A stretch of 39,293 bases of DNA. Source: Phoronis australis (lineage: Eukaryota > Animalia > Phoronida). The notes beneath the pieces are model-generated. The model had not been told where the DNA came from, made no database searches, and saw only the letters and a program-made list of their open reading frames with translations. The stretch spans positions 328,021-367,313 of the forward strand of contig NMRA01000452.1 of the NCBI GenBank assembly GCA_002633005.1, read 5' to 3'. Below are positions 1-39,293 of the stretch, piece after piece (within the stretch, counting starts at the first letter, position 1; each line of letters begins with the position of its first letter). A program made the translations under genes and the position numbers.

Positions 1-1112
1 TGTAGTGCCAAGACATGATCACTAGAATTGTTGTATGCACTGCCAATGTCACTTAAACAAGACGCAATGTCGGGATGGTCAACGTCACCATATATCCTCT
101 TTCTCATTTTCAGTGACTCTTGCAAATACTGTAGTGCCGAGACATAATCACTAGAATTGTTGTATGCACTGCCAATGTCACTTAAGCAAGACGCAATGTA
201 GGGATGGTCAACGTCGCCATATATCCTCTTCCTCATTTCCAGTGACTCTTGAAAATACTGTAGTGCCGAAGCAGGATCTTTTGAGTTGTTGTATGCAATC
301 CCAACGTCACTTAATCCTGACGCAATGCCGGGATGGTCAACGTCGCCATATATCCTCTTCCTCATTTCCAGTGACTCTTGATAATACTGTAGTCCCGAGA
401 CATAATCACATGATTTGTTGTATGCAGTGCCAACGTAACTTAAAGAAGACGCAATGTCGGCATGATCAACGTTACCATATATCCTCTTTTTCATTTTCAG
501 TGAGTCTTGCAAATATTGTAGTGCCAAGACATGATCACTAGAATTGTTGTATGCACTGCCAATGTCACTTAAACAAGACGCAATGTCGGGATGGTCAACA
601 TCACCATATATCCTCTTTCTCATTTTCAGTGACTCTTGCAAATACTGTAGTGCCGAGACATAATCACTAGAATTGTTGTATGCACTGCCAATGTCACTTA
701 AGCAAGACGCAATGTAGGGATGGTCAACGTCGCCATATATCCTCTTCCTCATTTCCAGTGACTCTTGAAAATACTGTAGTGCCGAAGCAGGATCTTTTGA
801 GTTGTTGTATGCAATCCCAACGTCACTTAATCCTGACGCAATGCCGGGATGGTCAACGTCGCCATATATCCTCTTTCTCATTTCCAGTGACTCTTGATAA
901 TACTGTAGTCCCGAGACATAATCACATGATTTGTTGTATGCAGTGCCAACGTAACTTAAAGAAGACGCAATGTCGGCATGATCAACGTTACCATATATCC
1001 TCTTTTTCATTTTCAGTGAGTCTTGCAAATATTGTAGTGCCGAGACATAATCACTTGAATTGTTGTATGCACCGCCAACGTTTCTTAAATAAGACGCAAT
1101 GTCGGGATGGTC
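1..1112 (-). repeat. Coding tandem array of ~8.6 x 129-bp (43-aa) TPR units with a 516-bp four-unit higher-order duplication
   Basis: Consensus DHPDIASSLSxVGxAYNNSSDYVSALQYxQESLxMRKRIYGDV. Units start at 1112, 983, 854, 725, 596, 467, 338, 209 and 80. Bases 1-516 nearly match 517-1032. Confidence 0.95.
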
Positions 1113-3403
1113 AACGTCGCCATACATCTTCCTTGTCATTCTCAATGACCTTTTATGGTATTCTAATTCTCTATCATGCTTACTCATTTTACCGTAGATT
1201 GTCCCTATCTGACCCAATGTCTTTGCAATACTCGGATGGTCATTGTTTGAATGGATTTTCCTACTTAACCTTTCTGAATCTTCGGCTGCATCTGTTGCTT
1301 TATCGTGTTCTCCCATCGCACAATGCACCGTAGCAAGGAGACATTTAACTGAAACGGTATCATCTTGTTCGCCTTCTTTCAAAAGTTTCAATGTTTTAAT
1401 CGATGATAAACACCATTTCAACGAGTGTTCGTAGTTCCCATGATTATAGTACGCCATGGCTATCAGCTGCTTCAGTGTGGCTAATGTTCGGAGATATAAG
1501 TCCTCGTTCATGTTCATTGATTCAATGGAAAACTCTTGAACAAATGGTTGTCTGCTTAACGCTTTCTTGAGATCTTCAAGTAACTGGTTTGATAGTCTCT
1601 TTCCAGCCTCTTCATGCTTCTTCGTAATTTTTAATGCATGTATGTAATAATTAATTGCAGTACCATTTTGTCCTTTAAGGAAATACGCTTGCCCTATTAA
1701 CTGAAGACAATGACATACAAATCTGTCTTCGTGGTCACAGAAAACATCCTGTCCCTTGTGGTGCACCACTATGTCTTCTGTCTGTCTGTGTGGCGATTTC
1801 TTCTCCCAAACATATTCAATGTGGGTGAAAAATGTATCTAACGCGTTGTCATAGCGAAAGCAGCAAAGCTCTATGCAACCCTCGTAAAAATAATTTTTCT
1901 CAAAAAATGGCGCCTCAATCATTTTAGTTATGGGTGCAAGAACGAAGGACACATCTGTAATATAGTTAACTAACGGGTAGATAGAATAATAGTATCGGAC
2001 TATCAAATGTTTGAAATCGTCATACGGCTTGCCTAGCAACACAACGTCTTCCATTTGTCTACGCTGACTGCAATACTGTACAAGTCTGAATATACTTACA
2101 AATGAGACTATAAAGAGTAAGTTGTGCCTGCCATCAGGTGACAAAATGGCAGTGGATTTCATTTCATCAATGAGATCCCAAGTGTTGTCCTTAGTCAAAT
2201 TGAAAATAGCTTTAAATAAGGTAAGGACCAAGGTGGGCAGTCTGTACATTTCCTTTTTTATGTCATGAACATTTCCTGGCTTGTTGTGGAAGCTAAGCTC
2301 ATACAAGAACTCGTCCACAACATTGCGTATGTCACTGAAATATTTCAACCGTGCTTCTTCCTCCTTCTGGTGACGCGCTCGCTCTTGCCTGAATTCCTTC
2401 AGCAAGGATTCGTCTCCGTCAAGTTGCACTGTTGACATAAGAACGCGATCGAAGTTATACCCCTCTTTAATTGCTTGCCTGACTTCACACATTTCAGCCA
2501 TGTGTTTTGGTGTCTTGATTAATTCTATTCCGGCTTTACCTGGTCTATCAGGTCGCCCAAGTGGTGTCTTGCATGCGAATGGTACTGCACTATCAAATTC
2601 AAACCCACGAGCTACCACGTCATCAACAAACCAATTTCTACCTGGCGTGTCGTAGTCATTAAGCGACTTGATATGCATACTCTTAAGGTTTGTTTCTCGA
2701 ATATTTAAGACAAACAAGTGCATAAGTCTAGTCATGTTCCTGAAGTACTCAAGATCTTGTGCGTCATCCTTTACCAAAATGGCCCATTCCAAGTCCGAAT
2801 AGGGTGTTACCTCTCCCCTTCCCAAAGAGCCCATGGCAAACGCTGCGTAGTCCTGTGGGGGTGGGCCTAAAATTTCTCTGCATTTTGAGAGAAGGTATTT
2901 GTTCAAACCTTGCATTTGTGAGCACAAGGTCCGAAATATCGTTCTAGTTTCATCAACGAATACATGTTCTAATTTCAATCGCTCACTATCGGATGCTTCT
3001 AAATTGAATTCAGTGGCAAAAGTGCTCAGTAGTTCACCGGCTCCTGGAGAGGTCTGGATTCTGACATTTCTCAATTTTTCTACCACTTCGGACCTAAAAT
3101 CCATTGGTATTTTGCTACCAGACAGACAAAGCGTGGTACAGAATGCCGTTTCGTTGTCTCTTATTAAGATCTCCAACTCCTCAGTCATTTCAGTTTCAAC
3201 TCTCAGTATAGCGGCGTTATATAAGGCTGAAGCAGTAACGAAGTGTTGAGTACATTTTTGTAATAGCCCTCGCTTTTTGTAAATATCACCCATCTTTTGA
3301 AGGATTTTTCCACCTGACTCTGATTTTCTGTCATCCTTGCTTAGTTTTTTAAGCTTGGATGCTAATGAGTCTTCATCCTTGACCAGCCGTGATGACACTT
3401 CAT
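1..3403 (-). CDS. Large exon (3'-partial) of a nucleotidyltransferase (GlnD/DUF294-like) + TPR-array protein
   Basis: Hand translation of the minus strand is open from the acceptor ttgcag|AT GAA GTG (3403, phase 1) to the window edge: DEVSSRLVKDEDSLASKLKK...ILQKMGDIYKKRG..HFVTASALYNAAI...LGPPPQDYAAFAMGSLGRGEVTPYSDLEWAILV...GFEFDSAVPFACKTPLG...HDIKKEMYRLP...NTWDLIDEM...FRLVQY, then TPRs. Absent from the ORF track because no stop lies inside the window. Confidence 0.92.
2040..2900 (-). other. Pol-beta superfamily nucleotidyltransferase domain (GlnD/GlnE/DUF294-like) followed by a DUF294_C-like helical domain
   Basis: hGS-x10-DLE signature at 2772-2867, preceded by GPPP..YA..AM. Candidate third acid in GFEFD (~2592-2606). 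DIKKE.YRLP (~2264) and NTW.LID....LS......L......FRL resemble the DUF294 C-terminal domain. Confidence 0.8.
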
Positions 3404-4445: not shown

Positions 4446-4604
4446 CTGACACGTCTTTTGCTTCACCCTCGTCGGCCTGTTTATCGCTGTCTGATGAAGG
4501 ACAGACTGATGATGGTCCATCTGCCGGCTCCTGCGCTTCCTTTCCTGACGTAGTACAGACCTCATCTACAGACCTGTCTTCTGTGTTCTTGATGTCGTCA
4601 TATT
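4446..4604 (-). CDS. Internal 159-nt phase-1/1 exon, acidic low-complexity (copy 3)
   Basis: Acceptor atacag|AATATGAC, donor GTGTCAG|gtataa. Encodes EYDDIKNTEDRSVDEVCTTSGKEAQEPADGPSSVCPSSDSDKQADEGEAKDVS. Phase matches the 3403 acceptor. Confidence 0.82.
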
Positions 4605-5417
4605 CTGTATACACATTCAATGACTGCAGTTATGTTGAACTGTTATGTAAACAAGACTACAAAATTTAAATTATCATACACTGTATTTCTATCCACTTTA
4701 ATAAAGGTTTGAAATTTTAATAATTTTCTTATAGTCCCAGTGCTTGATCAGCTAGTCACTTGATTTATAATGACACAAGCAAAATGTATCAACATCAGGT
4801 ATTAAGATATCTTGTAGGAAACCAGTCGGTGTTTACAATAATTTTTAAACTCATTTTATGTTTGAAAATGTAGCCAGAAACAATAAATGTATCATAGCAG
4901 GAAGGAATTTTCTTCCGGTTTGAAGACTGAATGAAAAAATCATATTAGTAGATTACTTCATGGGGGTGCTTAAATGGGGGACTGGAATTTCATGTCTTGA
5001 TTAGATGTAGCGATAACAATCAAAACTAAAACAGGCATGTAGTCAACCCACACTATTTTTGTAGAACGCAGAGATGCCGAAAAAGGATCAAACTACCGCT
5101 TCCGCCGCCAGTGCTTCTCATAACTAAACACGAACGTGGCCTGAAATTAGACCCATGTTTAATGACGTATACATCAAAATAAAAGTATATCACCTCCAAT
5201 CAACCACGCCGAAACATTCGAAATTTGAATCATGTTTCGCTCAAAACAAGTTTCCTTTTACGACTAGAGTCAATTTCAATGAAGTGTTATAATACAACCA
5301 ACACGAGAAAAATCGTCCAAATGCATTGTGCAGGTACTACACGTGTTTTCAATCTGATATGATGTTTAGTTGATTAAATTGTTACCCTGCAACTTGATTG
5401 CTTTCCTATGGTTATAC

Positions 5418-5576
5418 CTGAGACGTCTGTTGCTTCACCCTCGTCGGCCTGTTTATCACTGTCTAATGAAAAAGAGCGTGATGATGGTCCATGTGCCAGC
5501 CGCTCCTCTTTCTTCCCAGATTTGGTGCAGACCTCATCTATACACCTGTCTTCGGGGTTCTTGCTGTCGTCACATT
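5418..5576 (-). CDS. Internal 159-nt phase-1/1 exon (copy 2)
   Basis: Acceptor catgcag|AATGTGAC, donor GTCTCAG|gtataa. Encodes ECDDSKNPEDRCIDEVCTKSGKKEERLAHGPSSRSFSLDSDKQADEGEATDVS. Confidence 0.82.
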
Positions 5577-6265
5577 CTGCATGCATATTGAACGACTGTC
5601 TTGGTTATGGAGAAATTGCTTTCAATTGCACAAAAACTGCTTGCATATTCCGCAAACCTAAAGTGTAGGGTGTTAAGGGTAAAATGACCAACTTGATCTA
5701 AATTTCCAACTTCAGAGACTGCTTATACCTTTTGCACAATAATTATAATTCCATTCAATGTGCAAGCAATCCTAATCCATTTGAAACAAGACTGTGTCAA
5801 AATTTAAAAATTCACTTTAATAAAGTAGTGAGTTTTCAATATTAAGCCTACACCGCCTCTCATCACAAAATATAAACGTGACTTGGACTTAGTTCTATTT
5901 TTCATGACCTATATTACAAAATGTAAATAATATCACCTCCACACAATCACCGTAAATTCGATTTTCTACAACGTTAGGGAGTTTTTGATAGTTTTGCGAT
6001 GAAAAGGCGTTTTTTTTTTCGTAAACAACTCCACTAAATTTGAAGCGTGTTTTGAACAAGACAATTTCGTCTCATTTACTGACATTTTGTCATCTCATTA
6101 GGACATGAGTGAATCTCATTGACATCAGGTGACACTATCGAAACAACAAAAACCGCTCAAATACTGTACATCTTTTGCAGGCACTATGATTACTGTTTTA
6201 TCTGATTATGAGTTTTGTTGATCAAATTGTTACATTATAAGCTGATTGCTTTCCTGACATCATAC

Positions 6266-6424
6266 CTGGCACATCTGTTGCTTCACCCTCGTCGACCTGT
6301 TTATCGCTGTCTGATAAAGGAGAGCGTGATGATGGTCCATGTGCCGGCCCTTGCGCTTCGTTTCCAGATTCGGTATGGACATCATCTATACACCTGTCTT
6401 CGGGGCTCTCGCTGTTGACAGATT
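6266..6424 (-). CDS. Internal 159-nt phase-1/1 exon (copy 1)
   Basis: Acceptor catgcag|AATCTGTC, donor GTGCCAG|gtatga. Encodes SVNSESPEDRCIDDVHTESGNEAQGPAHGPSSRSPLSDSDKQVDEGEATDVP. Confidence 0.82.
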
Positions 6425-7220
6425 CTGCATGCATATTGAATAACTCTCCTGTTATGAAGGAACTGTTTTGAATTGTGCACAAAAAGCGCACATGTTTTAA
6501 ACCTACAGTGCCCGTGTGCGTTTGTTACGGGTAAAATGGCCAATTTAATGCAAATTCCAATTTCATTCTGCTTGTTACGCCCACTTCATCGTTAATTTTT
6601 CTAAATACACATTTATTGGCAGCCATTTTGTATGACGTGAGATTTTTGTGGCTTTGGCGTCATTTTGTATGATGGCTATGCAGGAAGGACATTTTACGAT
6701 TATTATTTCAGAAACTAATCTACGTGGTGGCTCCTTGACCATACTCAGATAGAGTCCAGTAGCGGTATGACCTCGCTAAAAAAAGCAAAACTTCGCGAGA
6801 TAACGTGAGATATTGCCGTGTATTTCAAATGAGGACACGTGATTTAAGTTAGATTTGAGCGAGGTCCTAGAAAAGGTCCAAGAGTTACTGAGCTAGTGTT
6901 TTGTTGCAAGTCCTAACATTTGCTAAAGCCTTGGGCACACTAGCCTAGCCAGAGGTATTCAGTAAGTAGAGCCAAATTTGGGAGCCGATTAATCGACCGT
7001 ATGGGCGTTTTGGAGAATATTTAAGTGACCGTGCTACACACTCTCGCTGAAGAGCTCCTGTGGCACTGAGTAGGAGGACCATGATCCCCTTATGCACCGC
7101 CGTAAAGTACATCTGTGCAAGAAACTCTAGTCTGTTTGCCACAATTAGCACTAACTCTGACCGAATAACAGTGCACAAACTATCTTCATTAGTCAGTGAC
7201 ATCGTATGAAACAGCATCCC

Positions 7221-8749: not shown

Positions 8750-9560
8750 CTGGTGGGTGTGGTGAGGGGAGCCAAGAGAATGACACTCAAAAATTGAGCT
8801 AGATCAACTTTTCTGGTAACCACATAATCTGCCGTCGATACCTGCTACGTCATCCATTGTATCAAAATTGGTCACTGCGAGACAATTTCTGTGGTGGGAA
8901 GTACCCGCCAGACAAACATATACAGGGTACAAAAATTGAGCTAGATCAATCCAAGAGGTAACCGCTTGAAACCAGTCGCAAAATTTATTATTCATCGTAA
9001 GCACAGGTACCACGAATGAGCACTGCCAGAAAAATCTAGTGGTGGGTTACCCTCGCCAGACACGCCTAAATACCAGAATTGAGCTAGATCAATCCATCAG
9101 GTAACCGTTTGAAACCAATTGCACTACGTTCAGCATCACTGAACAGTTTGATGCCAGACAATTTCAATGGTGGGGTGCCCCTGCCAGACGATTATCAAAA
9201 AGGGTTAAAAATTGAGCTAGATCAACCCAAGAGGTAACCGCCTAAAACCAGTTCCAAAATATTCACCGTAAGCCCAGGTATCACGAATTAACACTGCCAG
9301 ACAAATCTAGTGTTGGGTTAGCCACGCCAGACACGTCCAAATACATGAATTGAGCTAGATCAACCCAAGAGGTAACTGCATGAAACAAGTAGCAAAATAT
9401 TTGCCGTAAGCCCTGGTATCAAGAATGAATACTGCCAGACAAATCTAGTGGTGGGTTATCCCCGCCAGGCACGCCCAAGTACCTGAGTTTAGCTAGGTCA
9501 ACCCACAAGGAAACCGCTTGAAACCAATCGCCCGATGCTCAGCATCATTGCACGTGGCAA
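8750..9560 (+). repeat. Tandem repeat of about six ~140-bp units
   Basis: Core AATTGAGCTAGATCAA (last copy degenerate) at about 8792, 8934, 9077, 9210, 9348 and 9487. Each unit also carries GCCAGACA..GTGGTGGG..GCCAGAC. Confidence 0.85.
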
Positions 9561-10029
9561 AACAGTAAGATGCCTCCATCAAACAAATAGGGAGTCGAAA
9601 CAACATTGATTATAAGCCCATTCACGCTGAATAAGCATCACAATCAGGAACCAGGCACTTCGATTTTCAATAAAGCCACTAAGTCTGTACGACATAGGTC
9701 ACCGCACAAGGTGAGAGATTTTTGTCCGCAAGTTTATGTCTGGGCATGAACAATAGAAAAACCGCGCCTGAGGTTGGAGCGATCTCACAAGTCCATGCGA
9801 AAACAGCAGAATACTCCACATAATTCACTATTAAAACGAAACCTAAAAACTCGTCCAAGACGGATACCACATTTTTTCGTTATCCTATTTTACCAGTCTA
9901 AACTGCCTCCCTTTGTTTTCGGACGAGTCATTTGATGCAACTGCTAAAAGGAATAATAATCAAAATGCCGTCTTTTGCTGTCCCCTGCGTCATCTACCTT
10001 CATTTCACACGGTGATGAATTGCAAATTT

Positions 10030-12502: not shown

Positions 12503-13030
12503 ATTTCCAGCGATGTAAGCAACTTAAGTAACACGCTAAAATACAACCAGATATACAATTTTGTTAAGTCATTCGCCAACTAGACTTCATATTTCCGTCT
12601 GAGTATGCAATGAGATGTAATCACTCATTTAAGCATGGCTGATTTGAAACTTCGGCAGGAAATAATACGACAATGTTCTCTTTTTGGACCACATTACATC
12701 CTAATTTATGTCCCGTCACAGCATCCTCATATCTGGTATTACAAATTCCGTCTCATCTCATGAAAATGAGTCGTCGTCATTTATACAGATTTCCCTTCCC
12801 CCTAATTAAGGTGCGTCAAAGGCATCACCGAAAACTCTACAGTGGCGACGTTTGCAAAATACGAAGATCCACCGTTCTTGAAATTCGAACCACCCCCGGG
12901 GCCTGAATAGCATACATGCATTTGAGTTGAGAGATAGGGGCGTCAAAAAAGTCGCCCTTGCATCGACCAAACCTCTGCACGCTACTGCCCCACCGCTAAA
13001 AATGTCTGTAAAGTACCTTTTGTTGCATGN

Positions 13031-13330
13031 TGTCTGGCGGGGCTAACCCACCACTAGATTTGTCTGGCAGTGTTTATTCGTGATACCTGGGCTTACTGTG
13101 AATATTTTGGAACTGGATTTAGGCGGTTACCTCTTGGGTTGATCTAGCTCAATTTTTAACCCTTTTTGATAATCGTCTGGCAGGGGCGCCCCACCATTGA
13201 AATTGTTTGGCATCTAGCTGTTGTGCCATGTTCAGTGATGCTGAACATCGTGCAATTGGTTTCAAACGGTTACCTCATGGGTTGATCTAGCTCAATTCTG
13301 CTATTTGGGCGTGTCTGGCGGGGTAACCCA
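13031..13330 (-). repeat. Inverted copy of ~9040-9335 (140-bp repeat family), next to the N at 13030
   Basis: Reverse-complement match over ~300 bp, e.g. GGTTACCTCTTGGGTTGATCTAGCTCAATTTTTAACCCTTTTTGATAATCGTCTGGCAGGGG. Confidence 0.85.
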
Positions 13331-14119: not shown

Positions 14120-14165
14120 TCGATAAGTCATTACCATCCTCAGCCGCGTCTTCTTGGTCGGCCAT
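14120..14165 (-). CDS. Probable first coding exon of the NTase-TPR gene (MADQEDAAEDGNDLS)
   Basis: ttttatttgtag|ATTTCGAAAATGGCCGAC...TTATCGA|gtaagt: good acceptor (exon starts 14174), AAAATGG start context, consensus donor. The 46 coding nt give phase 1, matching the downstream exons, and the peptide is acidic like them. Confidence 0.7.
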
Positions 14166-16774: not shown

Positions 16775-19700
16775 TTAAGAGTGACTCCACGAGAACAGTT
16801 TCAGGCAAAAGTGACACGTCACAGATATTTTGACCTATGGCCATTTGGTACTGACACCTAAGTGCAATGATTAACGAGGTAAATATTTTAAACGACAGTG
16901 CAGCCTAATGCACGTGGCAGAGGATACTGTTAAATTAGTGTTGCACGAGCACTTTCACAAACTCATTGGTGAATCACGATTACGTTGTCTTTTCATTAAT
17001 CACCAAGCAAGCGAAGAGTGTTTAAGTAGGGCAAAATGCAGGCAATAGTTATCCAAAATAGAGTCATGCCTGTGGCGGCTTGAACTTCAATTCTAACCAT
17101 ACATGTCTGCCAATGTTTGCAGAAAACACAGTACACCTGAACTCCTCGAACAGCGTTATGCAACACAACTAATACGGTATCCAGACATCGAGAGCTTAGC
17201 CTATATAAGTTCGTGAACTTATATTCTGCTTCTAGTAATACGGTATATGAGCAGACAGCAGAAATTTGAACATCATAGAGGCACACGCTGAGACGTCACA
17301 CATAAAACAATACATTTATACGTCATATCTCCTTGAAAATACAACTTTTGAATTGGGTGGATTCTTACTTAGGGTAATCCAGCACAACGTTACAACGACA
17401 CAATTAGTAGTTAAGATAGTATCGATATTTTAAGTTTTTTGGTTGGGCCCTGATGCTGCGCCGTGTGAAACACTGTGTGTTCAATCAGTATTTCAGAAAG
17501 GGAACTTTAAACACCGATTTCTCAACTGCGCCCATGGCCTAAACTCACTTCACAAGGGTGGGTTAATTAAGATGCTAATGCCCAGTTTGTTAATTTATAT
17601 ATAAAAGTACCCTATTTGAAATAATCTAATGTTAAGACGCACTCCACTAAGCGCTTCTCAAAGCTCAAAATTAAACGAGAAGCTGTAACGTAAAAACATT
17701 AATGAGACACTGCGTACCCTTAATCAGGCCATCCGTAGTAAAGACACCCCAGTTTGCGGGGACGGTCGGTTAAGTTGTTTCTAATCTTTTTTAAAGTAAA
17801 CATTTGTAACTCACCGGAGATTCACAAAATTCGGAGCCTATATCTGTAAGATGGCGATATTGATTGATAAAACGTCGGTGAATATGACAGACGTGATTTT
17901 AGTCATCACTTCCGTGTAAATTTACAAAATTCAATTGAAACGAAAATTTAACTCTTAAAACTTATATCGGCAGTCTTTAAAAAGAACAACTAATTAAATA
18001 TTAATACAATTTACCTTTCAAGTTGCCTTCATGAATCCACAGCCAGTAGAATTGGTTGTACTAGTACGTTAGGAGAAGCCTACACAACCCTTCCTACTGT
18101 CACCGTGGTAAGAGACAAAACAAACACACCTCAAACTAAATATGTTATTGATAAAATACTTGATATGATGTTGTTTTTTTCCTGCCCTGGGACTTTGCCT
18201 TTGTGTAGTTAAAGGTTGGCTTTGTCCCTAACAAAAGAAAAAAGATACACCTGGCGCATCGTTTGGTTCAAGGAAACGATCATGGCAGGTTGCCAATTGC
18301 CACATTGTTATTGAAAGTGAAAGAAAAACACGATGGCATATCAGCGGAACAAAATGCAATTCAAATGTTTTTGTAACATAACACTGATTAAAAAATCAAG
18401 ACTATTTATATTTTATGCATATCTACGTATGTATTTTCCTCTAGATAGGCTATTTTCGTCTCTTACGGACACCTAACTTAAGTAGACACCTAAATTTGTG
18501 ATTGGCTTGTGCCTAACACGTGACTCAATGGTCTAAACAAGAAGTGTCATGGCAGTCCACATATGACTTTCCTTTAATGATATATGTCTATAAATTTACA
18601 CCGTCAAAATCATACATGTCAGAATCTTACATGTCCACCAACTAGTTCGATGAACACACAATGAACTCACAAGTCAGAGAGCGCGTGCCACGGTCCTCCA
18701 TATTTGTTGGGCGAAGAAATGAAAACAAAGGCACGCTCTCGCAAATACTCAGAATAAAATTTGAAATTTCAAATACAACAGGGGTTGTAAAATATTGCTA
18801 AAACAAAGCAACGTAAATAAGTGACCGCTCATTGCTTAAACGTGGTCATATAAGTCAATACACAGACAAACTTCCCAATGCTTTGGCTGGAATTCTTTGC
18901 TGCTAGGGTCTGGGAGGTCCCGGTCTGCTCCTGTCTAAAAGACAACTACACCGAAATTTAGACATTTATAAATTCTGGAAATTATTTCCTTTTATACCAT
19001 TAATTAACTTCATGAGAATCTATAATTTTAGTAATTATATAGAAAAATAACAGAAAAGGCGATCAGCTGTCAACGGACGACTCGCCACTGAATCACTGCA
19101 TTCCCGAAGTTTTTAGGCCAAGAGATTTATTCTTCTGTCATCTTTGGTTCATAGTGTAGTTAAAAGATCTAAAACCTAAAGTAAACCTTATGAACTTTAA
19201 CTGACCTCAATCCCAGTGAACTGAAATTTCAAACACAATGCTTGAATCATAGATTATAGATAACTATAGTCTACGCTTGGACGCTCAAAGTAGGATGTTC
19301 AAGTATGCACTTGGACGCACCCAAGTTCGCGAACACTGGATGGAAATTACTATTTCAGGCTGTGTTAAGGAGGAAAACTTCCATTGAAATATAGACAGTT
19401 TGCACAAATAAAACGCATGTAGGAGTGCTGAGGTGTCTAAATAAGGCGTTACTTTAGTGATACTCTCTATCTCTCATAACTCTCTGGTATTTGTCCCACT
19501 ACCAATTTTTTCTTGTCGTGTAGAACTAAGTTTGTATATTTTGAAACTCCATGGTCTCAAAATTCAAACGGTACTATCATAAACTCTGTTGTCAAAAGTG
19601 CTGTAAATTGAATTCATGTATATTTGTGGATCCAATATGCTAAAAAGGTGCCAAAATTGTAATTTCATACAAGTAAACATACTTCATCTCGAATGGGCAT

Positions 19701-22589
19701 CCACAAAATGATGCAAAAATAGAAACAACGCAATGATATGCGCCATCTCAAACAATTAAGTTTCGATTTATTTCAAAATATTCCCACCATTCAGCAAAAA
19801 CTCACATAAGTGGGATACATGTATGCCTAACTGGACAATGTTGCTGCCTTTGTACATGCACTCCACCGCACCCAAGTCTGATTTCAACAAACCCGAATTA
19901 AATCCCTCGATTCAGTTGGATCTGAGTATTTAGTGCTACACATTTTTGATACACATATTCCAATGTACATGTATGTCTTGTAATTGACTACAGACTGCCA
20001 CAATAAAAATAGGACAAAAGTCAATGGTCATAAACTCTATGCTGCAAACCCAGGCATTAATACTGAACAATCGTTTCTGCTATCGCATTCTCTCATGCAA
20101 AATCAATGTTTAAATCCCGTAAGGCCAAAAAATCGCATCATTGGTTCTGGGTCCGAGGACTAATCTTTCTAGTGGAAATCGAACTTGACGTTTTCTGCTC
20201 TACTTTACTTCAAACTTAAAACAAGTGTCTTGCTTAATAACTTTGAGGTCGAAAAGGTTAGGGTTTTCGTGTATAATAACATTAGTTTTCATTTGATGAC
20301 CCTAACAAAGAACGAAACAACAGACATAGATTAGATGCAAGAAGACTTTTTGATACCAAATTCAAAATATAAACTACAAACTTACAACACATTCTCTGAT
20401 ACACGTCATCTCCCCCCTCAGTTACTTTAGTTTGGGTGAACTCTAAAATCACATAAATCTTCAGGACAGAAGTTTAATAATTAAAAATGATTTTGAAAGT
20501 TAAAACCAATCCCTAAATTAATATAAATAAAAGTGGAGACACTTACCGCATAGATAGTAAACCCGATAGTATCCGAATTTCTCTGTCTGAAAGGTCTGAG
20601 AATGTTCCAAAGTACGCTACTTTGGAAGTTTAAAGTTTAAGGCAAAAACAATAAATATGTAAAGTGAAACTAGTGTCACAAGAAGTGGATTTATGTAAAA
20701 AACACCACATACAATGAACTAGGCCGGTCATTCCAGCAAAATTACCGCACACTCAAATTTATCTCTCATCCCGCCACAATAGTATTTGGCCACCAATAAC
20801 TCAACCAAGTCAAATAGTGATTGTCAGTTCCTTACTGTTTTCAAGTAGAATATTTTTGTCTTTACGATTTACACTTAATTTCTGAAAAAAGCAGATTGAA
20901 TAGGCAAACAAAGCATTCAAGCTTCTTCCCAACAACTGTCGCATTTTACATCATTTTCATATTGTACGTTGGCAAGCCTCTCCTAATTTTGCGTAATTGT
21001 TGCATTTTACGTAATCGTGACATTTGACGTTGGATGTGCGTGCGAGAAATGTACCAGTGTTACATTTTACGAAACCAACAGCATATCACCAAGTAAATTG
21101 ACAAAATCACCGACAAGTGATATCTGACACGGCCAGGTGTACTCACGTAATTATTGATGAGGAGTTCCGCCCGAAAATTTGAATACTTACACCCTGTACT
21201 CATTTTGAGAGTGGGCTCAGGCAAAAAGTGAGATATTAAGACAGTAATTTTGCGTAAAAATTACATTTTCACACAGTTCTGTTCCAGAAATTCAGAAAAT
21301 GCAACTTTTTAGATATTTTGTCAAAAATGGCACCATTGTGGAGAGCCTTTTTGATGTAAACACCCTTTTGGGCGACGCTTTTCGTATGCCTCTTCTGTAA
21401 ACATACCCTCTGGACTGTGACGGAATGAACTTATCTAAACAGCGAGAGCTGTTGCAAAGGTTTTAAAGGGGTTCATAGTTTCAACCTTAACGATATAAGA
21501 AATTTCTTGACAGCTGTGATTGCAGAGTAAGCCTCCTTTTTTGGAAACGAGGAGATTGAGATTTAAAATCTGATGTAGACATGTTCGAACTTCAAAAATT
21601 ATTTCCGAACTATCGGCAAGCACGGTAGGTATTATTTGTGACATAACTAATTATAAAACCCTCATGTAGTTTGCCATAAAAAAACTGAATCCAGATTGTA
21701 TTCTTTTCCTTGCAACTTGCTTCTAAACATGAGGATACACACCGTGTTATCATTTTTCAATTGTCTCTTTGTTGAAAACATAGTTCCTTTTCAAAGAACT
21801 GGGTCTCGTTCTACGAAGATGTGTAAGTTCAAAAACTGCGTTAAGTTAAAATCTGGAGGCAGACATTTTTCAAGCGAACCGGCAAACCAATAAAGGGCTT
21901 GGGAATATCTTTCACTCCCAATGACCAAGAAGGTTATTTCCTAATAGTTCAATTTAAAATTATATGGCTTAAAAAGTCTTTCAATGTCTATAAAAGTCGG
22001 AACACTTCTTTGCTGGATAGAATGGATGCACGCAATTTTTTTTACTTCTTAAGAATGTCTATGTAAAGTATCACATAAGGATGGAGAGTACCAATAGAAG
22101 GAAGGTAAACACAATCTAACAGAGCAAGTCTCCACTGAACATCGAAAATGTGTATTTCACCTCATCAGGCATAAGTTTCATTTCAGTTATATATATGCTA
22201 ACGATCAATTTCCATGAAAGCAAAGGAAGGAAACACCCTTCTCCTAAGCCTGTCGCTATCGAAGTGCCCGACACATACAGTCGCGCCCACGTACATGTAA
22301 CAAAGGCGCACTGAGACGAAAACAAAGACATTAGCACAAGAATAACTGAACATTTGCAACTAAATAAGAATAACAATAAGGGTTACTAAAATTCCGTCAT
22401 ATTCTCCCGCCTAACAAAAAATGTCGTCCCGACATCATTAACATACAATATGAAAACAAAGCGCAGTGAAATGGAAATCATTCAGTCTCCTCTGACTGGC
22501 TACAGACATCAAAACGCACATTCCACTTTCAGCACGGCAACGCCTGGCGCGTTTGCAACAGCAGCAAAACTCAAAATACTACAGACCTA

Positions 22590-25882: not shown

Positions 25883-26854
25883 CTACAAACTTACATCTAC
25901 ATTAGCTTCCGTCGTCATCTGTTTTGCTTCACCGTATTTGCTGGCTTGTGCTAGGATTTCTCCCACATCTGTCTTAAAGGCAAGAAGAACATCTCGCCCT
26001 TGGTGATGATCTTCTAATTCTGGAATGTGGAAGAGCAACCGTTCTTTCAGTAGGGTAGCATGTGTGTCGGGTGATTCGATTCCTAGCTGCTCCAGCCTCT
26101 TCCTGTACAGACAAAACAAGTCTACAAGTCGGAAAACCGGTGGATCTGAACCATCACTTGCAGTTTTCACCTCAGTAATGTATGTCACGAGTTCCGAAAA
26201 AGTCATCGGATAAGCATTCTTTGTTTGGAGAGTCCCTTCTTCTTTCTTATGCTTTTGAGCATTCAGAAATGCCCTTTCTCTGTTGTACAGAGCTAACAAG
26301 CATGCTGGATGATATTTTACTTCCTGTGCGATGACATCTCCGGCACTAAGTTTTGCTAGGAGCTTACCATCATTGAGAGTCTTGGCACATTCATTGATAG
26401 TGTGGTTCAATGTCAAGGTCATAGCTTGTCTCAGGGTTTCCCCTTCCTCCTCAAACAAGAAGCATTCGGTAGTCTTGGGGTCTATGATTCTCCTTGGTAC
26501 TTTGCTGTAGTTGCTACTGTCACTAATGTATGATACAAGGGCTGATGATCTTTTTTCAGCTCGCTGCAGGTTCGTATTGCAGAAGAGCCACCTGCAGCTG
26601 GAATGGTACTGGGCATTGTTCTTTCTCAAAGTGTTCTCTATCCCGCTGCCATCGTCAAGTCTTGCGGGATCCAGATGTATTGGCAATTCATTGAGAGAAT
26701 GAAATTGAGGGTTATTCGCCCCTAACTGGCTGTATCCGCAATCTTGCCGTTTCGAAGGATTTGAAAGTGGAGACGTGAGATATTCCTTCATGTCCGTTTG
26801 ACAAAGACAACATTTGTCCAAGTTGGTGCGCCAAAGTGTTTTACTGGAAGCCAT
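25883..26854 (-). pseudogene. N-terminal part of an Academ-like transposase, truncated
   Basis: 323-aa ORF with CCLCQ, RLDDGSGIENTL..NNAQYHSSCR, LLAKLSAGDVIAQEVKYHPACLLALYNR and VFRL.DL..LY..RLEQLG....HAT.LKERLL. No catalytic core follows. Confidence 0.65.
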
Positions 26855-27929
26855 TGTTATTTTTACGATACGCAGGGTCGAGGATTTATCCTTTTACCAC
26901 CCTGTGTCCCGGGCACTTTACTGTATGGGATACGACTAGGTTCATGCATTTTGCCCTACTCCTAGCCCGACCGTTCATCCAACGCCATTTAAGTCCCTAC
27001 CGATCTGTACACCATCCGGATAACTATGAACCCCATTGTCTTTGGCTCAGCTTTCCCGCACTGCCACATCCTGTCAATTCAAGTGCGACTGCTTAACTGA
27101 TGGGGTAGATTAAGCAGCATTTGGGACACTAAACAGGTATATCTAATAAAAATTCCTCTTCAGTTGACATTGAGCCCCATGCTGAGTTTCACAGCAGTAA
27201 TTGTCACCAGTGTGCCCTGGCAGTGCCAGACAATTACTCACCAGACATTGTCTTCAAGTCATGGCCCGTCATCTTCATGTTCAGTATTTTTAGAGGTAGA
27301 CATACTTTAATTCACACACACACGGAGCTTTTGTGTGTTACTCTCACTTACGTTTTGCCCGCGAGCCAACGCGGTGTCCCGGGGTGTGGCCGTTGCTGCA
27401 CACCAGCAACTCCTTGGAGCCATAAGTGAGAGTTGGCAATAGAGGTGAGGACCAGTGTCAGAAGTCCATCCTGCTTAAACAAAGGTACTACCTCTACCAC
27501 TGCACCCGTACACACTATGCATAATTTATGTTCAGCTATTGATAAAAGACAAATGGATCATGACCAAAGCATTCGACCAGACAAAAATCATATAAACTGA
27601 CCGAATTAAAGTGTATAAGTGCCTATGTCCTGACAATATATACAATTGAGAGTGTTCACAATATCCAAAATGATTTAAGCATACCCAAAACTATAATATT
27701 TGATACCAAGATCGCTAAAATCGGTTTGGTAGATACTGATTTACAAGGAAAATCATTATCGCGAACACTGGATGGCGGCCATCTTGAAAAATGGCTGCCA
27801 TCTTGGATTTTCAGATGGTTAGTCGGACAGATCTCTTATGTATGCTATTATGCGTCATCATGGAAAATTTGGTGCTTGTATCATCATTTGCGTGATTCTG
27901 GTGCATATTTGCACTTATCTGCCCAGCTA
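25925..27929 (-). mobile_element. 5' part of a truncated Academ-like DNA transposon
   Basis: Minus-strand terminus TAGCTGGGCAGATAAGTGC at 27929 with GGCGGCCATCTTG-type subterminal motifs, followed by the transposase N-terminal ORF, which appears to break off near 25925. Confidence 0.6.
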
Positions 27930-28169
27930 TATGGGCTATAGTCAGGTGAACACCTAATGAGCTCGTGAGCAAGACAGCGCGTGCTACACGGTCCGCCATA
28001 TCGGTAAAGAGAAGAAATGTAAACAAAAGCGCGCTCCCGTTATGGCAGCTGGCAAATATCCAGAATATTTGAAATTTCCAATGCTGGAAAGCTTGTAAAA
28101 TATTTGCTAACACAAGGCAATGTAAACCTGTGGCAGGTTCACTGCTTAGACAAGAACATATAAGTCAGT

Positions 28170-31100
28170 GCACAAACAAAATTCCCAATGCTTTGACTGG
28201 AATTTTCGGTTGCTACGTTCTGGGAGGTCAAACAATTTCATCTAATGTAGACAATTTTCGCAAATAAAACGCATACATGAGAGTCGAGGTAAGAGTTATT
28301 TTAGTGATACGCTCTATTTTATAACTCTTGTACTTGTCCCAGCACCAAATTTATTTTATCGTGGAGAACTAAAATTGAAACGATTGTTCCATATACCCTG
28401 TTGTCAAAACCTCAGTAATTGAGAAGCATGTACATAGGGGAATCCTGAATTTTAAAGTGTCCGCAATATTACATGATATACCAATCAAGGCACCCGTTCG
28501 ATACGAACATGGTGTGCAGAATCGCAGAATTTTCAGTCAATAAGAAACACAGGGTTCATTCCGTATAGGCAATCAGAAGAAGGATAACAAAAATATTCAA
28601 CAACAGAAACAACACAATGAGATGCACCATCTCAAACAATTGTGTTTCGATTATTTCAAAATATCCCCACCACACAGTAAAACACACACACGTGGGACAT
28701 GTCTAGCTGGAAAAGATTACTTCCCTGGTCGGATTGCAACCAACTCGAATTAAATCCCTCGATTCAGCTGGATCTGACACATTTCTGCTCCACAGGTGTA
28801 TGTCTTTTAACTGACAACACCTTGCCACAATAGAAATAGGACAAAAGTCAATGGGCAAACTGAACCCACACATTACTACAGTGTAAGTACCAGAAGACCA
28901 CCGCCTTACACCAACAGGACTGACTAGAAAAAATACGTTTTTTCCCTAAGACAGTTGCAAATTGGAATAGCTTGCCGGGCTACACAGTATCTGTCCCAAA
29001 TCTACAACAGCAAGCTACCTGCCTTCCAAAAGTAACTTTGTGAGGTGTACCATTTTTGGGGCACTCCTTCTTAATTCCTGCCCTATTCTCAATGACCTGG
29101 CTATATCAATCAATCTTCAAAGTAATGTCCACAACGCAATGACCTGGCTATATCAATCAACCTTCAAAGTGATGTCCAATACGCAAAAATATAATTTTTC
29201 AAAATCTTATAATCATTTTGTCTTTGTTTCTTCGTCGCTATACACTGCAAGGAAATATCGTGGAAAGAATATGTTAAAAAACTCTTAGAATGCAGATCAA
29301 ATTACAAGGCCTGAATGTTCCTATTAGATGAGCACATCCAGCCTAAAAACGGGGGCTCGAAATTTTGAGAATGCGGATATTTTACTAAATTTTACCGGAT
29401 ACGTTCAGAGCTATGAAATGTGCATTCGCAGAATTTTGGTATTTCCTTCCTTCTTGTGGACTGTAGTCTCGTTTCCTACTTTTTCGGAGATTTTGTTTCT
29501 CTGAGGCGGACATTTTGTCCACTTCGCCAAATGGGAGCTCCTTCGAGCTTCCCGAGTCCCCCATGCGCAAATGTATTAAACGACCTCAGAGAATAACACG
29601 TCGCTGTGTAATCAAGGCATTGGTAAATGATGCATTGTTGGCATGTTTTAAAGCTTCATGTGGGCGAGACCAACATAAAACTTGTCACAATTGTTACAGG
29701 TCAAAAGATAAGAAAGAAAGCTTTTAAACAATAACTGCCAACCTGTTAAATCCACTGTCAGCGCTGTTCTGTTGTTTGCAAGTGTAGGCTATAAAAAATG
29801 TTAGCAAACGGTGTACATAGTCAAACAGTCACACAAGAAGCAAAATAAATTTCCTGATGGCCCACCCGAACAAAGCTACTCGGGCTAGCCACGGTTAGAA
29901 TGAAGGGCATGGTTTCCTAACATAGACTGAAGGCGGCACAGCTGTATTTATTTCTTTCAATATGGAAGGTTAACGCTCGAACCCTTACCCAGCTGTCCTA
30001 GGGATCAAATGGAGTAGAATAATTGTTTCTGCGATCGCATTCTCCACCGCAAAATCAATTTTTAATCATTGCAAGGCCATAAAGTTACACCATTGGTTCT
30101 GGGTCCGAGGTCTAATCTTTCTAATGGAAATTGAATTTGAAATTGTTACTTATTTTTAACGTTTTCATGCTCAAAATAACTGTCAGACTCAATAATTCTG
30201 CGCTGAAGTAAGTTAAGTTTTTTGTGGATGACTGTCTAATAATACTTGTTTGCACTTAATGACCCTAGCATTAAAGCTATGAATTTGAATCCGAACTTTT
30301 GAGTTGCCTCGAGTCACAGCTCGAATCTTGGAGTCTCCAAGGGCAAATCAGGACTAGAAACTAACGTGCATAAAGTATTATGTACTCGATCATATTATTT
30401 TAATTTGTATTCAAAGCAGGGCAAAAGTGATAAGAATAAGTTTGAGTAAAATTTCAGGACAAAATTGCAGACGCCTGATTGTTTACAAAGCGAGCACCTC
30501 ACTTGTTAAAGAAAAACGATTTCGACCTATATCACCCGACATCAGACGATGTTGGAAGAAGGATAGTAACCTATTTCAGTTGGCTTTTTCTACTCGACAA
30601 CTAAACACTGGCACATCATCCCATCAGTTTTCAAAAGAACACAGATAAAAACAATACCATGTTTTGTTAGACCCAACAGTATGAATTCACTAGCTTTTGA
30701 ACAAACCGAGCTTGGCCAGCTTCTGTCACACATTACCAGTGTTGAATGTCTCAGTGTGCAACATGGGTCTTTCTAACTTTATTGTGAGGAGAATCGGTGG
30801 AGCTTCCAGCTACGATCTATAATTTACTAACTTGACACTTTCGTCAGAGTAAATGTTCGCAGAGTCGTGCATTCTTTTAGCTAATTTGTATTGCACGCAA
30901 AGGAACCGTGGTGATATCTTTCAAAGAGATAAACCACAGATATATAGTAGATACATGCACAAGACGGTTTATTTAACACTAAATACAAAACACAAATTGA
31001 AAACTGACACACCCTCTGATACCCACGTCATCGTCCTTCAATTACTTTAGTTTGGAGCAACTTTAAAATCACATCAGATGCATTTGATTGCTCCTAAATT

Positions 31101-35262: not shown

Positions 35263-38075
35263 AAACATTACAATATCCGCATTACTACGTGGCAATGAGC
35301 CACAGAGATTACAAAATCTGTCCCCTGCTGTATTAAACTGTTTTACACACAACGCTTCCCAGAGTACAAATATGCAGCGTACAATAAGACCACCCGAATC
35401 CAGAACCCAAAAAAGCTCAAGCCGGCGATCGTCTGCTCCGTAATGCAGCAGCACATAATGAAAAGATGCTGCCTGTTTACCACGATAAACTGAACTTGTG
35501 GCTTATAGAAATGTTCTAAAAATCAAAGTTTATTTACCCTCAACACACGATGCAGCTTTATATGACTCACACTCCATACTCGTCAACATGATACACGGCA
35601 AAGTTGACTTATCCTCATACAAGACTGAGATTTCAAGTCCTAAATAAGAGAATATGTGTATAATTACTTGTACTTCTACACCTGCACACTTTTTCTGCAC
35701 TTGGAACCTCACGTACTGACGTCGACTCCCTCTGCATCGTCCACATGAACTATTGGTGTAGAAGGACACGGTGTGAGTTTGACATTTTCCTCATCCTCAG
35801 AGGACTGAGCAATAGGCACTGAAAAAGGTCACGTATGGAGAGCCTTCCAAAAAAGTTTAAAATTTAGATACACAGCTGGTAATGTTTTATGTAAAATACA
35901 CAACTTCTGAACTTGACTAGAATGGCAGGTAAAAACAATGGTGGTTTTCCTTAATTAAATGTTGAGCTGTAGATAAAAGCTGAGGTTATGTTCATGGAGT
36001 GTAACAGCCATCCAAAAAGCCGGGAAAACCCGCCCTTGGCTTGACGCTGTAACAATGTAGTTTGAATTCAACCCGAAAAGAAGAAAATGAGGAATTAACG
36101 TAACAAAATATACGAGTCTATTTGTTGACGTGATTTACAAGTGAAATAAAATTGATGATAGACATATATACAAACAATAAAACGTGCTATACAAGCTTTA
36201 CTTCCAGAGAATGAAAAACAAAACAGTAAGTTGACGAAGCATAATCCATTTATTAAGATAACATTTTTCTACTGATACAAATGGCACGATGTGTTTATGA
36301 TAAAACAAATAAAGTAATAACGTGTGTGGACAATAAAAAGCAAGGTTGCCTCAGCGCAATGAGTGGACTCAGGTAACTTGTGTAAGAAAATTGAAAGAGA
36401 AAGTTAATTGAGACATGATTCCAAATATAAGAACTATAACCCGTGTTCACCACCGGTTGCCTGAAATTCAGTCCCCTGCAACGTCTTGTACTGCAGGTCC
36501 TGAAGAACAGCAGACTGTTAGTATCAACGTCGTCATCTCCGTCATCAACTTTGTTCTCATCACCTTCGCTTCTTTCAATTACATCGTTGTTCGTCTCCCT
36601 CTTTGTTTTCCTTTCCTTCGTCATCAACACCTCTCTCATTTATATCGTTGATTTTTTCAAGCTCCATCGACTCGTCATATGCCCGTGAGTCTTCAACTTC
36701 CTCAACACCTCCCTCCTCTTGCTCAGGCTGTCCTTCACTCTCCGTGAAATCAACTAGGGCCGAATCGTCTTCAAACGCGGCGTTATCTGCCCTCACGCAA
36801 AATGCGCACGTTTTTCTTCTAGTGTAGAATTTGCATAACTCGTTGCCCACGCTACATTAGAGAAGTTTATCAAAATTGCGCGTGCTGGTGGTGCTGACGT
36901 GTTCATGGAGATATGACTTGGAGAGTTGCAGAACAAAATCATTCAGAAAACATGTTTCGGTGGTCTCTCAGGTCCCAGGATCTAACCTCCGGACTCAAAC
37001 TAAACCAATTCTGTCACATTCAAGCCAGAACAACTATTCGAAAAGTGCCAGGGTGTCACCATTCTGGAGGTGAATTTTGACAGATTTTCTGTTTCGACCA
37101 AGTTCAAGGGTACACCGATTTACCAGACCAATTAGATTGAAATAAAAAATGACGCAATTTGTATGAACCACGAAAATGCGGATTGTGGGCATGATTTTTG
37201 TTTCAACGTTTGTTGTCGTGATTCGTGCCTATAGGCCCAATGATTCAAGCATATAATTTAGTGGTTTTGATGTTTGATTCGAAATTCATGTGTAAAATTG
37301 AAGCTTTTGGACCTAAACCCTGATGATTATCCAGGTAGCTGTACCAGACCAAGTCGTAAAATTTCCCGAAAAATTAAAGATATGACGTGGCTTACGTAAG
37401 TTTTAACAATCGTTCGTTTTATGAATATGAATTCGATGTAATCTCAACAAATGAACTGTCAACCGAAAAGTAAGATTCTTGGAAAATGTAAATGTTGATT
37501 AGGTGGTAAATTTTACCATTAATTCAGGTGAAATATTTGAAGCGGAACATCTATAATTAAATCTTTTGTAATTTATTACAATATTCAAAGGACGTTACAG
37601 ATCCGAGTGACTCATTTCAGATCGTATCAAAGGTGCAATTTCGCGAAAGTTGTACAACGTCAAAGAAATATTGATGACAATTTTTGAATTTTGATTAATC
37701 ACGTTTGAAGTTTTCAAATTTTTACCCTTTATGTTATGTCAATGTAGCAAATCCGTTTCTCTACGACCATACTAAAAATAACATTGTTTTGTATTAATAC
37801 TTTTGAGAAATGATATGTGAAAGAAAACCCTGAAAATGAAATATAAACCCAAAACCGCTCAGTAATGACCTCACAGAAAAATTCACACGAACCAAATTTA
37901 AAAGTTCAACATGAAGCAACAATAGTCTTGTGTAAAAGTCGTATTTATACATAAACATCGGATTCGTACTTCAAAACAAGATCAACTAACGGAGGCAAAT
38001 TTCATCTTGCCCCTGTCTCATCAAACACAAACTAAATAATCGTACACCATCAAACCGTATCTTAGTAGTTTAAAA

Positions 38076-38115: not shown

Positions 38116-38127
38116 ACATGGCGAATT

Positions 38128-38246
38128 CGTTATCCCCCGTATTCTGGAGCCCGAGTGGATTTTGGAGAATTATCGCCCGAGGGGCGTTAGCCCCAAGGTT
38201 GATAATTCTCCAAAATCCACGAGGGCTCTAGATAAGGGGGATAACG
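38128..38246. repeat. ~120-bp imperfect palindrome (hairpin, likely MITE-derived)
   Basis: CGTTATCCCCC..GAGCCC..GTGGATTTTGGAGAATTATC..GGGG pairs with CCCC..GATAATTCTCCAAAATCCAC..GGGCTC..GGGGGATAACG. Confidence 0.85.
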
Positions 38247-38268
38247 ACTGAGAACAACTTTTATGCAG

Positions 38269-39293
38269 TTACATAATTAAAGTCTCTCCTTGTGTTTCTG
38301 CAATGTTAACGTGGTCTTCTTCACCAAATAATCTTTTGGTGATGCCCAGTGATTGAGTGCAGTAGTCCACAGCTTCATTCAGTTCATCCATTTTTAGATA
38401 AACCTCACTGTTGATAATACTGTAGTGCCGAGACATAATCACTTGAGTTGTTGTATGCACCGCCAACGTAACTTAAAGAAGACGCAATGTCGGGATGGTC
38501 AACGTCGCCATATATCCTCTTCCACATTTCCAGTGACTCATGATAATACTGTAGTGCCGAGACATAATCACTTGAGTTGTTGTATGCACCGCCAACGTAA
38601 CTTAAAGAAGACGCAATGTCGGGATGGTCAACGTCGCCATATATCCTCTTCCTCATTTCCAATGACTCTTGATAGTACTGTAGGGCCGAAGCATGATCTT
38701 TTGAGTTGTTGTATGCACCGCCAACGTTACTTCAAGAAGACGCAATGTCGGGATGGCCAACGTTACCATATATCCTCTTTCTCATATTCAGTGAGTCTTG
38801 CAAATACTGTTTTGCCAAGACATGATCACTTGATTGGTTGTATGAATCGCCAACGTTACTTAAAGAAGACGCAATGTCGGGATGGTCAACGTCGCCATAT
38901 ATCCTCTTTCTCATTTTCAGTGACTCTTGCGAATACTGTAGTGCCGAAGCATGATCTTTTGAGTTGTTGTATGCATCGCCAACGTTACTTAAAGAAGACG
39001 CAATGTCGGCATGATCAACGTTACCATATATCCTCTTCCTCATTTTCAGTGACTCTTGATAATACTGTAGTGCCAAGACAGCATCACTAGAATTGTTGTA
39101 TGCACTGCCAATGTCACTTAAACAAGACCCAATGTCGGGATGGTCAACGTCGCCATATATCCTCTATCTTATTTTCAGAGGCTCTTGCAAATACTGTATT
39201 GCCAAGACATGGGCGCTAGAATTGTTGTATGCACCACCAACGTTACATAAAGAAGACGCAATGTCGGGATGGTCAACGTCGCCATATATCCTC
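38269..39293 (-). pseudogene. Disrupted 3' end of a paralogous 43-aa TPR-array gene (5'-partial)
   Basis: Seven units (starts 39274 to 38500, 129-bp period). In-frame TAG at 39164-39166 (Lys position) and TGA at 38732-38734 (Leu position). A frameshift near 38410 puts the cap SEVYLKMDELNEAVDYCTQSLGITKRLFGEEDHVNIAETQ out of frame. Confidence 0.82.

Follow-up and report, generated by a model that had tools for sequence, protein, structure and literature searches.

A broken TPR array upstream of a nucleotidyltransferase–TPR gene in Phoronis australis

The locus and its left gene

The stretch of DNA analysed here, referred to as the window, comprises 39,293 nucleotides of Phoronis australis (GenBank assembly GCA_002633005.1, contig NMRA01000452.1, positions 328,021 to 367,313, forward strand). 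By its composition (33–45% GC, microsatellites, few long frames and one N at 13030) it looks like animal-type DNA. The sole long open frame runs on the minus strand from 3422 past the left window end; its 1140 amino acids contain a DUF294 nucleotidyltransferase and nine TPR units of 43 aa. A second array of the same 129-bp unit spans about 38407–39293. As reported in a preliminary description of this DNA, the two arrays lie on the same strand, are very similar in DNA (86% by our comparison) and are ∼ 24 kb apart, position 38269 being 24,104 bases upstream of the left gene's candidate ATG. The same description called the left array intact, which holds for the visible units only: the frame is open but is cut by the window end at base 1, within unit 9 (L9). 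The right array enters the window at base 39293, mid-array, and the visible parts are thus the left array's beginning and the right array's terminal portion. Since both window ends cut arrays, any comparison sets the 5′ part of one (left) against the 3′ part of the other (right). No overlap joining the two window ends was found, and the unit phases leave a gap of 30 nt. The left gene comprises the following features.

1..1130, minus strand: left TPR array, units L1–L9, open and exiting the window (unit alignment)
1131..3403, minus strand: unique part of the large exon, with DUF294 nucleotidyltransferase, helical domain and divergent TPRs (profile, model and alignment)
4446..4604, minus strand: candidate 159-bp phase 1-1 exon, copy 3 of three related copies (frame and splice prediction)
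5418..5576, minus strand: candidate 159-bp phase 1-1 exon, copy 2 (frame and splice prediction)
6266..6424, minus strand: candidate 159-bp phase 1-1 exon, copy 1 (frame and splice prediction)
14135..14165, minus strand: predicted first coding exon, with ATG at 14165 and a phase-1 donor at 14134

The left array contains a 516-bp higher-order repeat of four units, such that L2–5 and L6–9 differ at 0–1 sites per unit. The enzyme part matches PF03445 with 33.5 bits (cut-off 21), and its motif of GS, DxE and a third D is encoded by the codons at 2831, 2828, 2795, 2789 and 2594. Pfam searches detected neither NACHT nor NB-ARC in the 1140-aa frame, nor an F-box or OTU head in the frame of the left gene; among the other frames, four had no match under E 0.01 and three more none above cut-off. 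Splice joints of the left gene were sought in the reads and none was found; the exon model remains predicted. The three candidate 159-bp exons are 77–82% alike and open, and encode an acidic low-complexity stretch. Contigs of the DNA run X1 jump between the copies (4480–6308, 5721–6563), whose number may vary between haplotypes or paralogues.

On sequence grounds we assign the left gene to the DUF294 / GlnD–GlnE nucleotidyltransferase–TPR family; the enzyme part of the right copy would lie past the window. Relatives of the enzyme region number at least 1,046 representatives at E 1e-10 or better, about 26–41% identical. The 20 that were looked up comprise ten from Branchiostoma, one each from Owenia, an amoeba symbiont and a metagenome, and seven unnamed. 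GS, DxE and the third D are invariant across 51 aligned sequences. Internal repeat identity reaches at least 0.7 in 18 of 155 fetched relatives (a non-TPR repeat in one of the 18), and the distance of the array from the C-terminus varies widely among the 22 of 150 representatives listed. Several relatives (P0006–P0011, P0097) match the enzyme domain two to five times within one protein; in the Owenia protein an OTU domain is present in addition, as it is in some of the Neochlamydia NEX2 proteins discussed below. The GlnD/GlnE/DUF294_C group is given as bacterial in passages of PMC3710099, and parts of PMC13449251 report HIC repeat proteins in animals. In the open-access literature searched, no description of an animal DUF294–TPR family was found; the one such family to emerge was chlamydial.

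In structural comparison the model of the enzyme region (pLDDT 91.4) aligns with DrrA and with the two GlnE domains. These give the only four matches under E 0.001, among them 6yx5 (E 4e-8), 3k7d (E 7e-7) and 1v4a (E 4e-6), and the fold matches are at 12–14% identity with a TM of about 0.45. Judged from this model and the motif, the region would transfer a nucleotide, probably AMP to a protein. A sequence search of solved structures was dominated by TPRs among the best 60 of 337 matches. The model of five left units is a TPR solenoid of KLC type (pLDDT 93.7; one of five models confident); its structural matches include KLC-type TPRs and 4y6w, a Podospora repeat structure. Both arrays classify as C-terminal TPR_10/TPR_12 arrays.

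Several other elements lie in the window. A 121-bp palindromic MITE-like element at 38127–38247, just downstream of the right array's tail and adjoining (AT)17, is present in very many copies (summed X1 depth over 400,000). On the minus strand, a 336-aa open frame at 25883–26893 has no Pfam match; it may resemble transposon-derived proteins known from marine invertebrates. At 36480–36900 (minus strand, two frames, no Pfam match) lies a broken, acidic stretch that looks coding and may be a decayed exon or a transposon remnant. A 138-bp tandem unit occupies 8873–9574, with an inverted 91% copy 4 kb away at 13031–13330 that ends at the N at 13030, which is likely a scaffold join. A long dispersed repeat is present in two decayed copies (69–73%), at 18643–20454 and 27939–31074, that are collinear across several pieces.

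The right array and the reads over it

The right array has the following features.

38411..39292, minus strand: right TPR array, units R1–R7 of 129 bp (43 aa) each in one frame, R7 cut at nt 108; its start lies past the window (unit alignment)
39164..39166, minus strand: in-frame stop TAG, last codon of R1 (one-base change)
38732..38734, minus strand: in-frame stop TGA, residue 15 of R5 (one-base change)
38410..38411, minus strand: frameshifting junction between R7 and the terminal TPR, register shift after nt 108 of R7
38269..38410, minus strand: divergent terminal TPR and stop, out of the array frame, ending in TAA at 38271–38269

The visible right array is the broken end of an array of TPRs. 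Two stops and a frameshift had been described here, and we confirm both stops and the out-of-frame terminal TPR. The position of the R1 stop reads AAG in 13 of the 15 other units, the remaining two being one cut by the window end and one past the junction; that of the R5 stop reads TTA in 15 of 15. From the register we infer that a deletion at the junction removed 74 nt together with an indefinite number of complete units. The whole units themselves are all exactly 129 bp long, with no stray indels. The terminal TPR matches TPR_10 at E 9.1e-5 with 22.8 bits, below the cut-off of 27.5. Two X1 contigs over the tail terminate at ∼ 38409, which fits a bubble end and is uninformative on the junction.

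Six right units carry 23 private changes (14 missense, 7 silent and 2 stops) and five left units carry 16. Changes at otherwise invariant residues number nine in the six right units, two of them the stops, versus three in the five left units; this right-side excess of damage falls short of significance (binomial p 0.13). R1, the final 129 bases of the window, has the highest count of private changes (nine), four of them at invariant residues if the stop is counted, including a proline in helix B. This unit bears directly on whether the upstream paralogue might still work, ending at or before the first stop and leaving R2–R7 and the tail as 3′ untranslated relics. Everything 5′ of R1 lies beyond the window, the tail and its downstream flank are covered by a small number of sense reads (depth 1–6), and the array ends of the relatives vary as described above. 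Yet it is R1, still coding on such a reading, that has changed most, with the proviso that it is also the contig end, and the reads over the tail carry alleles other than those of the window at three sites. We consider a shortened working gene of this kind distinctly improbable.

Sample S1 and the RNA samples are other haplotypes than the window, because at four sites of the tail all X1 and X2 depth departs from it; X1 contigs are identical to the window across 508 nt of flank. A private allele of the right array (38524) is absent from X1 contig depth, 1805 of 1805 reading otherwise. The same is true of a private allele of L1 in the left array (1083; 1706 of 1706 otherwise), next to a flank, 1131–1360, that is identical. 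One private allele per array is also missing from nearly all RNA reads. As private alleles of both arrays are missing alike, their absence from the reads separates none of the readings considered here; the allele at 1083 is either an array polymorphism between individuals or a consensus error.

Consensus error of a repeat at a contig end could in principle account for the stops and private changes as a whole. Both window ends fall within arrays, R1 being the last 129 bases, and the alleles at 38524 and 1083 were seen in none of the X1 contig depth. Against this, the exact 129-bp units and the near-identical copies of the left 516-bp repeat suggest an error rate far below 23 private changes in six right units, and the differences between X1 and the window extend to the four sites in the unique tail, X1 being another haplotype. 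An origin of the changes in the assembly is very unlikely in our estimation.

The reads also point to further members of the family. Summed X1 depth on the unique exon is 64–205, and eight contigs have another letter at 2769, pointing to further gene versions beyond the window. On the unit, summed X1 depth is ∼ 3,800 versus 40–120 on the flanks; such depth is not copy number but points to tens of units. Family-unit RNA is ∼ 90 deep on the expected sense strand versus 0–11 on the opposite one (library strandedness presumed), and unit RNA depth is 47–147 versus 2–14 for the enzyme core, mostly from X7. RNA is 1–3 deep over the right tail, where the reads carry non-window alleles at three sites. 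A look for RNA data sets containing the right region listed none, which is not evidence about its expression. On the left unique exon it is 0–4 deep, reaching 14 at the enzyme core, with reads differing at many sites; RNA reads at least 99% alike to the left gene numbered 0 of 574, 6 of 477 and 2 of 857. There is transcription of family units and very little of the left gene. Most of the expressed units derive from members of the family that are more distant, and the left gene is at best presumed to be a working copy. The window's units resemble the expressed units more closely than the left gene resembles the expressed enzyme region, a hint of family-wide homogenisation of units.

The excess of unit RNA over enzyme-core RNA would be compatible with other genes carrying the units, and the right array could then be an orphan piece without an enzyme exon, or belong to a gene that joins the same units to another N-terminal domain. 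Opposed to this are the second versions of the enzyme exon in X1, which are joined to an array start, and the tandem arrangement in one orientation, which is the expected product of gene duplication. The chance that the right array lacks an enzyme exon of this family appears to us slighter even than that of an assembly artefact.

Mosaic units and the likeness of the two arrays

Short modules recur in both arrays in new combinations, as the preliminary description observed. The head GNVDHAD is followed by SYVGT in L2 and L6 but by SNVGD in R3. SCLSDIGS occurs four times on the left and once on the right, SKD(P/H)AS twice on each side, SSDYVS three times and twice, and SSDHVL twice and once; VGD is confined to the right array (none on the left, two on the right). 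For an incompatibility test we used 11 of the 16 units, leaving out L6–L9 and R7 as near-copies. Of 26 informative sites in these units, 52% of the pairs were incompatible; incompatibility between neighbouring sites was 0.04 versus 0.55 in shuffled data (p 1e-4), and with one site per codon p was 0.002 or less. Since neighbouring sites are almost never incompatible, the units are mosaics produced by recombination below the level of the repeat.

The units carry no signal of locus. Mean distances are 0.140 within the left array, 0.147 within the right and 0.144 between them (exact p 223/462); 24 minor alleles are common to both arrays and no difference between them is fixed. A tree of all 16 units needs five changes of locus label, a number like that obtained when labels are shuffled, and the AU test rejects a clade made up of right units only (p 0.019), with the caveat that trees of recombining 129-bp units are weak. 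Strict clustering by locus without mosaic tracts, which had been named as the outcome that would speak against exchange between the loci, is thus not what the trees reveal on either count. In rebuilding the units from one another, five of six right units fit left units as well as or better than other right units, and four of five left units fit right units better than their own array. Both shared descent and exchange predict such cross-array fits, and a duplicated array that was mosaic beforehand would look no different from one that had undergone exchange.

Recent copying is visible inside each array and not between them. The longest identity between left and right is 51 nt versus 275 nt within the left array and 112 nt within the right. 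No unit is identical across the loci, the closest full pair differing at 9 of 129 positions. The GENECONV analysis that had been proposed was carried out as a similar run test on polymorphic sites, with low power on 129-bp units: none of 55 pairs was globally significant, and the best left–right pair gave a global p of 0.64. When each array is rebuilt as the best-fitting mosaic of the other, 5.9% and 5.3% of sites still mismatch. For comparison, second versions of the unique exon in X1 differ from the window at 12 of 230 and 18 of 294 sites (5–6%), and at 5.5% divergence the median longest identical run expected in 880 nt is 74 nt. The arrays are therefore no more alike than versions of the gene outside the repeats, and descent from one mosaic ancestor explains their likeness. 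The 5–6% version in X1 may be an allele rather than the right array's gene; one X1 flank piece differs from the window at 9 of 256 sites.

These results divide the earlier proposal of segmental exchange between paralogues, in which the broken copy would supply variants by gene conversion. The mosaic units and the lack of clustering by locus agree with exchange; a donor role of the broken copy is unsupported, there being neither an identical unit nor a long or significant tract between the arrays. The repeats of a donor pseudogene should be kept intact relative to the rest of it, whereas in the right array two of the repeats, R1 and R5, contain stops (the remainder of the pseudogene is past the window). 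A broader version would have all copies, the broken one included, still swapping short modules, with the pseudogene sometimes acting as donor, by analogy with the Podospora NWD genes. Arrays 24 kb apart on one strand that are so alike, that have minor alleles in common without fixed differences and whose units often find their better fit at the other locus would accord with it, and parts of PMC1805685 and PMC13449251 provide a precedent. Conversely, the closest units still differ at nine positions, the broken copy's own repeats carry the stops, the best tract falls far from global significance and two partial arrays give no direction of transfer. Tracts under about 50 nt are indistinguishable from shared descent. 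On balance we regard ongoing swapping as unlikely.

Variation within the unit is concentrated at positions 14, 17 and 20, in helix A. Going by the usual TPR numbering, we presume that these positions face the groove. Overall pN/pS is about 0.7, and in the left array pN is about twice as high at positions 14, 17 and 20, from few units; with pN below pS overall, positive selection on the units is not shown. The units are 84.5–84.7% similar to their consensus and 73–77% pairwise, measures that only approximate the T-REKS definition (85%, at least 100 aa).

Origin of the right array and comparison with known systems

We consider it probable that the right array is the decayed 3′ end of an upstream tandem paralogue, and that its modules were inherited from a shuffled ancestral array and not recently donated. 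Birth and death in a tandem cluster, which the preliminary description listed as an alternative, is the best-fitting reading; part of the upstream gene lies past the window. Out-of-register crossing-over and short conversion among 129-bp units would shuffle modules of 30–50 nt, and the same process would yield block duplications such as the 516-bp repeat on the left and R6/R7 on the right. The nucleotidyltransferase–TPR gene would have duplicated in tandem, and one copy would have lost function and now be accumulating private changes. In working copies the TPR array may bind a target while the GlnE/DrrA-fold domain transfers a nucleotide, probably AMP to protein, as fold and motif predict.

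As a broken tandem paralogue the right array is ordinary. The point of interest is an animal enzyme of GlnE/DrrA fold joined to TPRs shuffled below the repeat level, evolving like fungal immune receptors without their ATPase. A bolder and distinctly doubtful reading is that these genes are undescribed one-piece receptor-enzymes of invertebrates, with a GlnE/DrrA-fold AMPylase and a TPR sensor and no NLR ATPase, whose tandem copies swap modules of 30–50 nt and whose broken copies are a live module store. Should the enzyme prove to be an AMPylase that a variable sensor gates or aims, a further class of signalling or defence proteins would have to be recognised in animals; were pseudogene arrays to donate modules, the result would be a germline diversification system in an invertebrate.

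Among known systems, the fungal HIC NLRs (Podospora NWD genes) share the shuffling of near-identical units both inside and across paralogues, the presence of pseudogene members and variable positions in helix A of the TPR, to which passages of PMC4986451 map fungal TPR variation. The HIC definition given there is repeats 85% alike over at least 100 aa; recombination among units, another mark of these receptors, is found here as well (p 1e-4). In contrast to them, the Phoronis gene is not an NLR, has no NACHT or NB-ARC and its enzyme region models as a nucleotidyltransferase; it is an animal-type gene with predicted introns, and pN/pS is about 0.7. In Podospora, according to parts of PMC1805685 and PMC13449251, repeat exchange includes pseudogenes and is recognized by identical units across divergent genes and near-intact pseudogene repeats; in Phoronis no unit is identical across the loci and the repeats of the broken copy have not been rescued. 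Tandem expansions of TPR genes with birth and death are described for corals in parts of PMC12314368.

Closer in domain content are the amphioxus and annelid TPR proteins annotated as 'PII-uridylyltransferase N-terminal domain' (XP_078689555.1, CAH1270266.1, CAH1783117.1), which combine a DUF294-type enzyme with C-terminal TPRs of 42–44 aa, the Owenia protein even having 43-aa units. They are uncharacterised entries that are 26–37% identical to the left gene, and most have 44-aa units. The Neochlamydia NEX2 proteins (F-box/OTU–DUF294–TPR), as presented in passages of PMC4209131, are likewise an expanded family with DUF294 and C-terminal TPRs, but are proteins of a bacterial endosymbiont with F-box or OTU heads, of which none was detected here. 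GlnE, the glutamine synthetase adenylyltransferase, and the AMPylase domain of Legionella DrrA are the best structural matches of the enzyme model; the Phoronis enzyme differs in being fused to a shuffled TPR array. Finally, parts of PMC3341825 on exon shuffling in the ROCO-LRR and NB-ARC-TPR genes of Ectocarpus propose that non-coding repeat copies form a reservoir of diversity; in those genes every repeat is a separate exon, whereas the Phoronis units lie in one uninterrupted frame and are shuffled below the level of the repeat.
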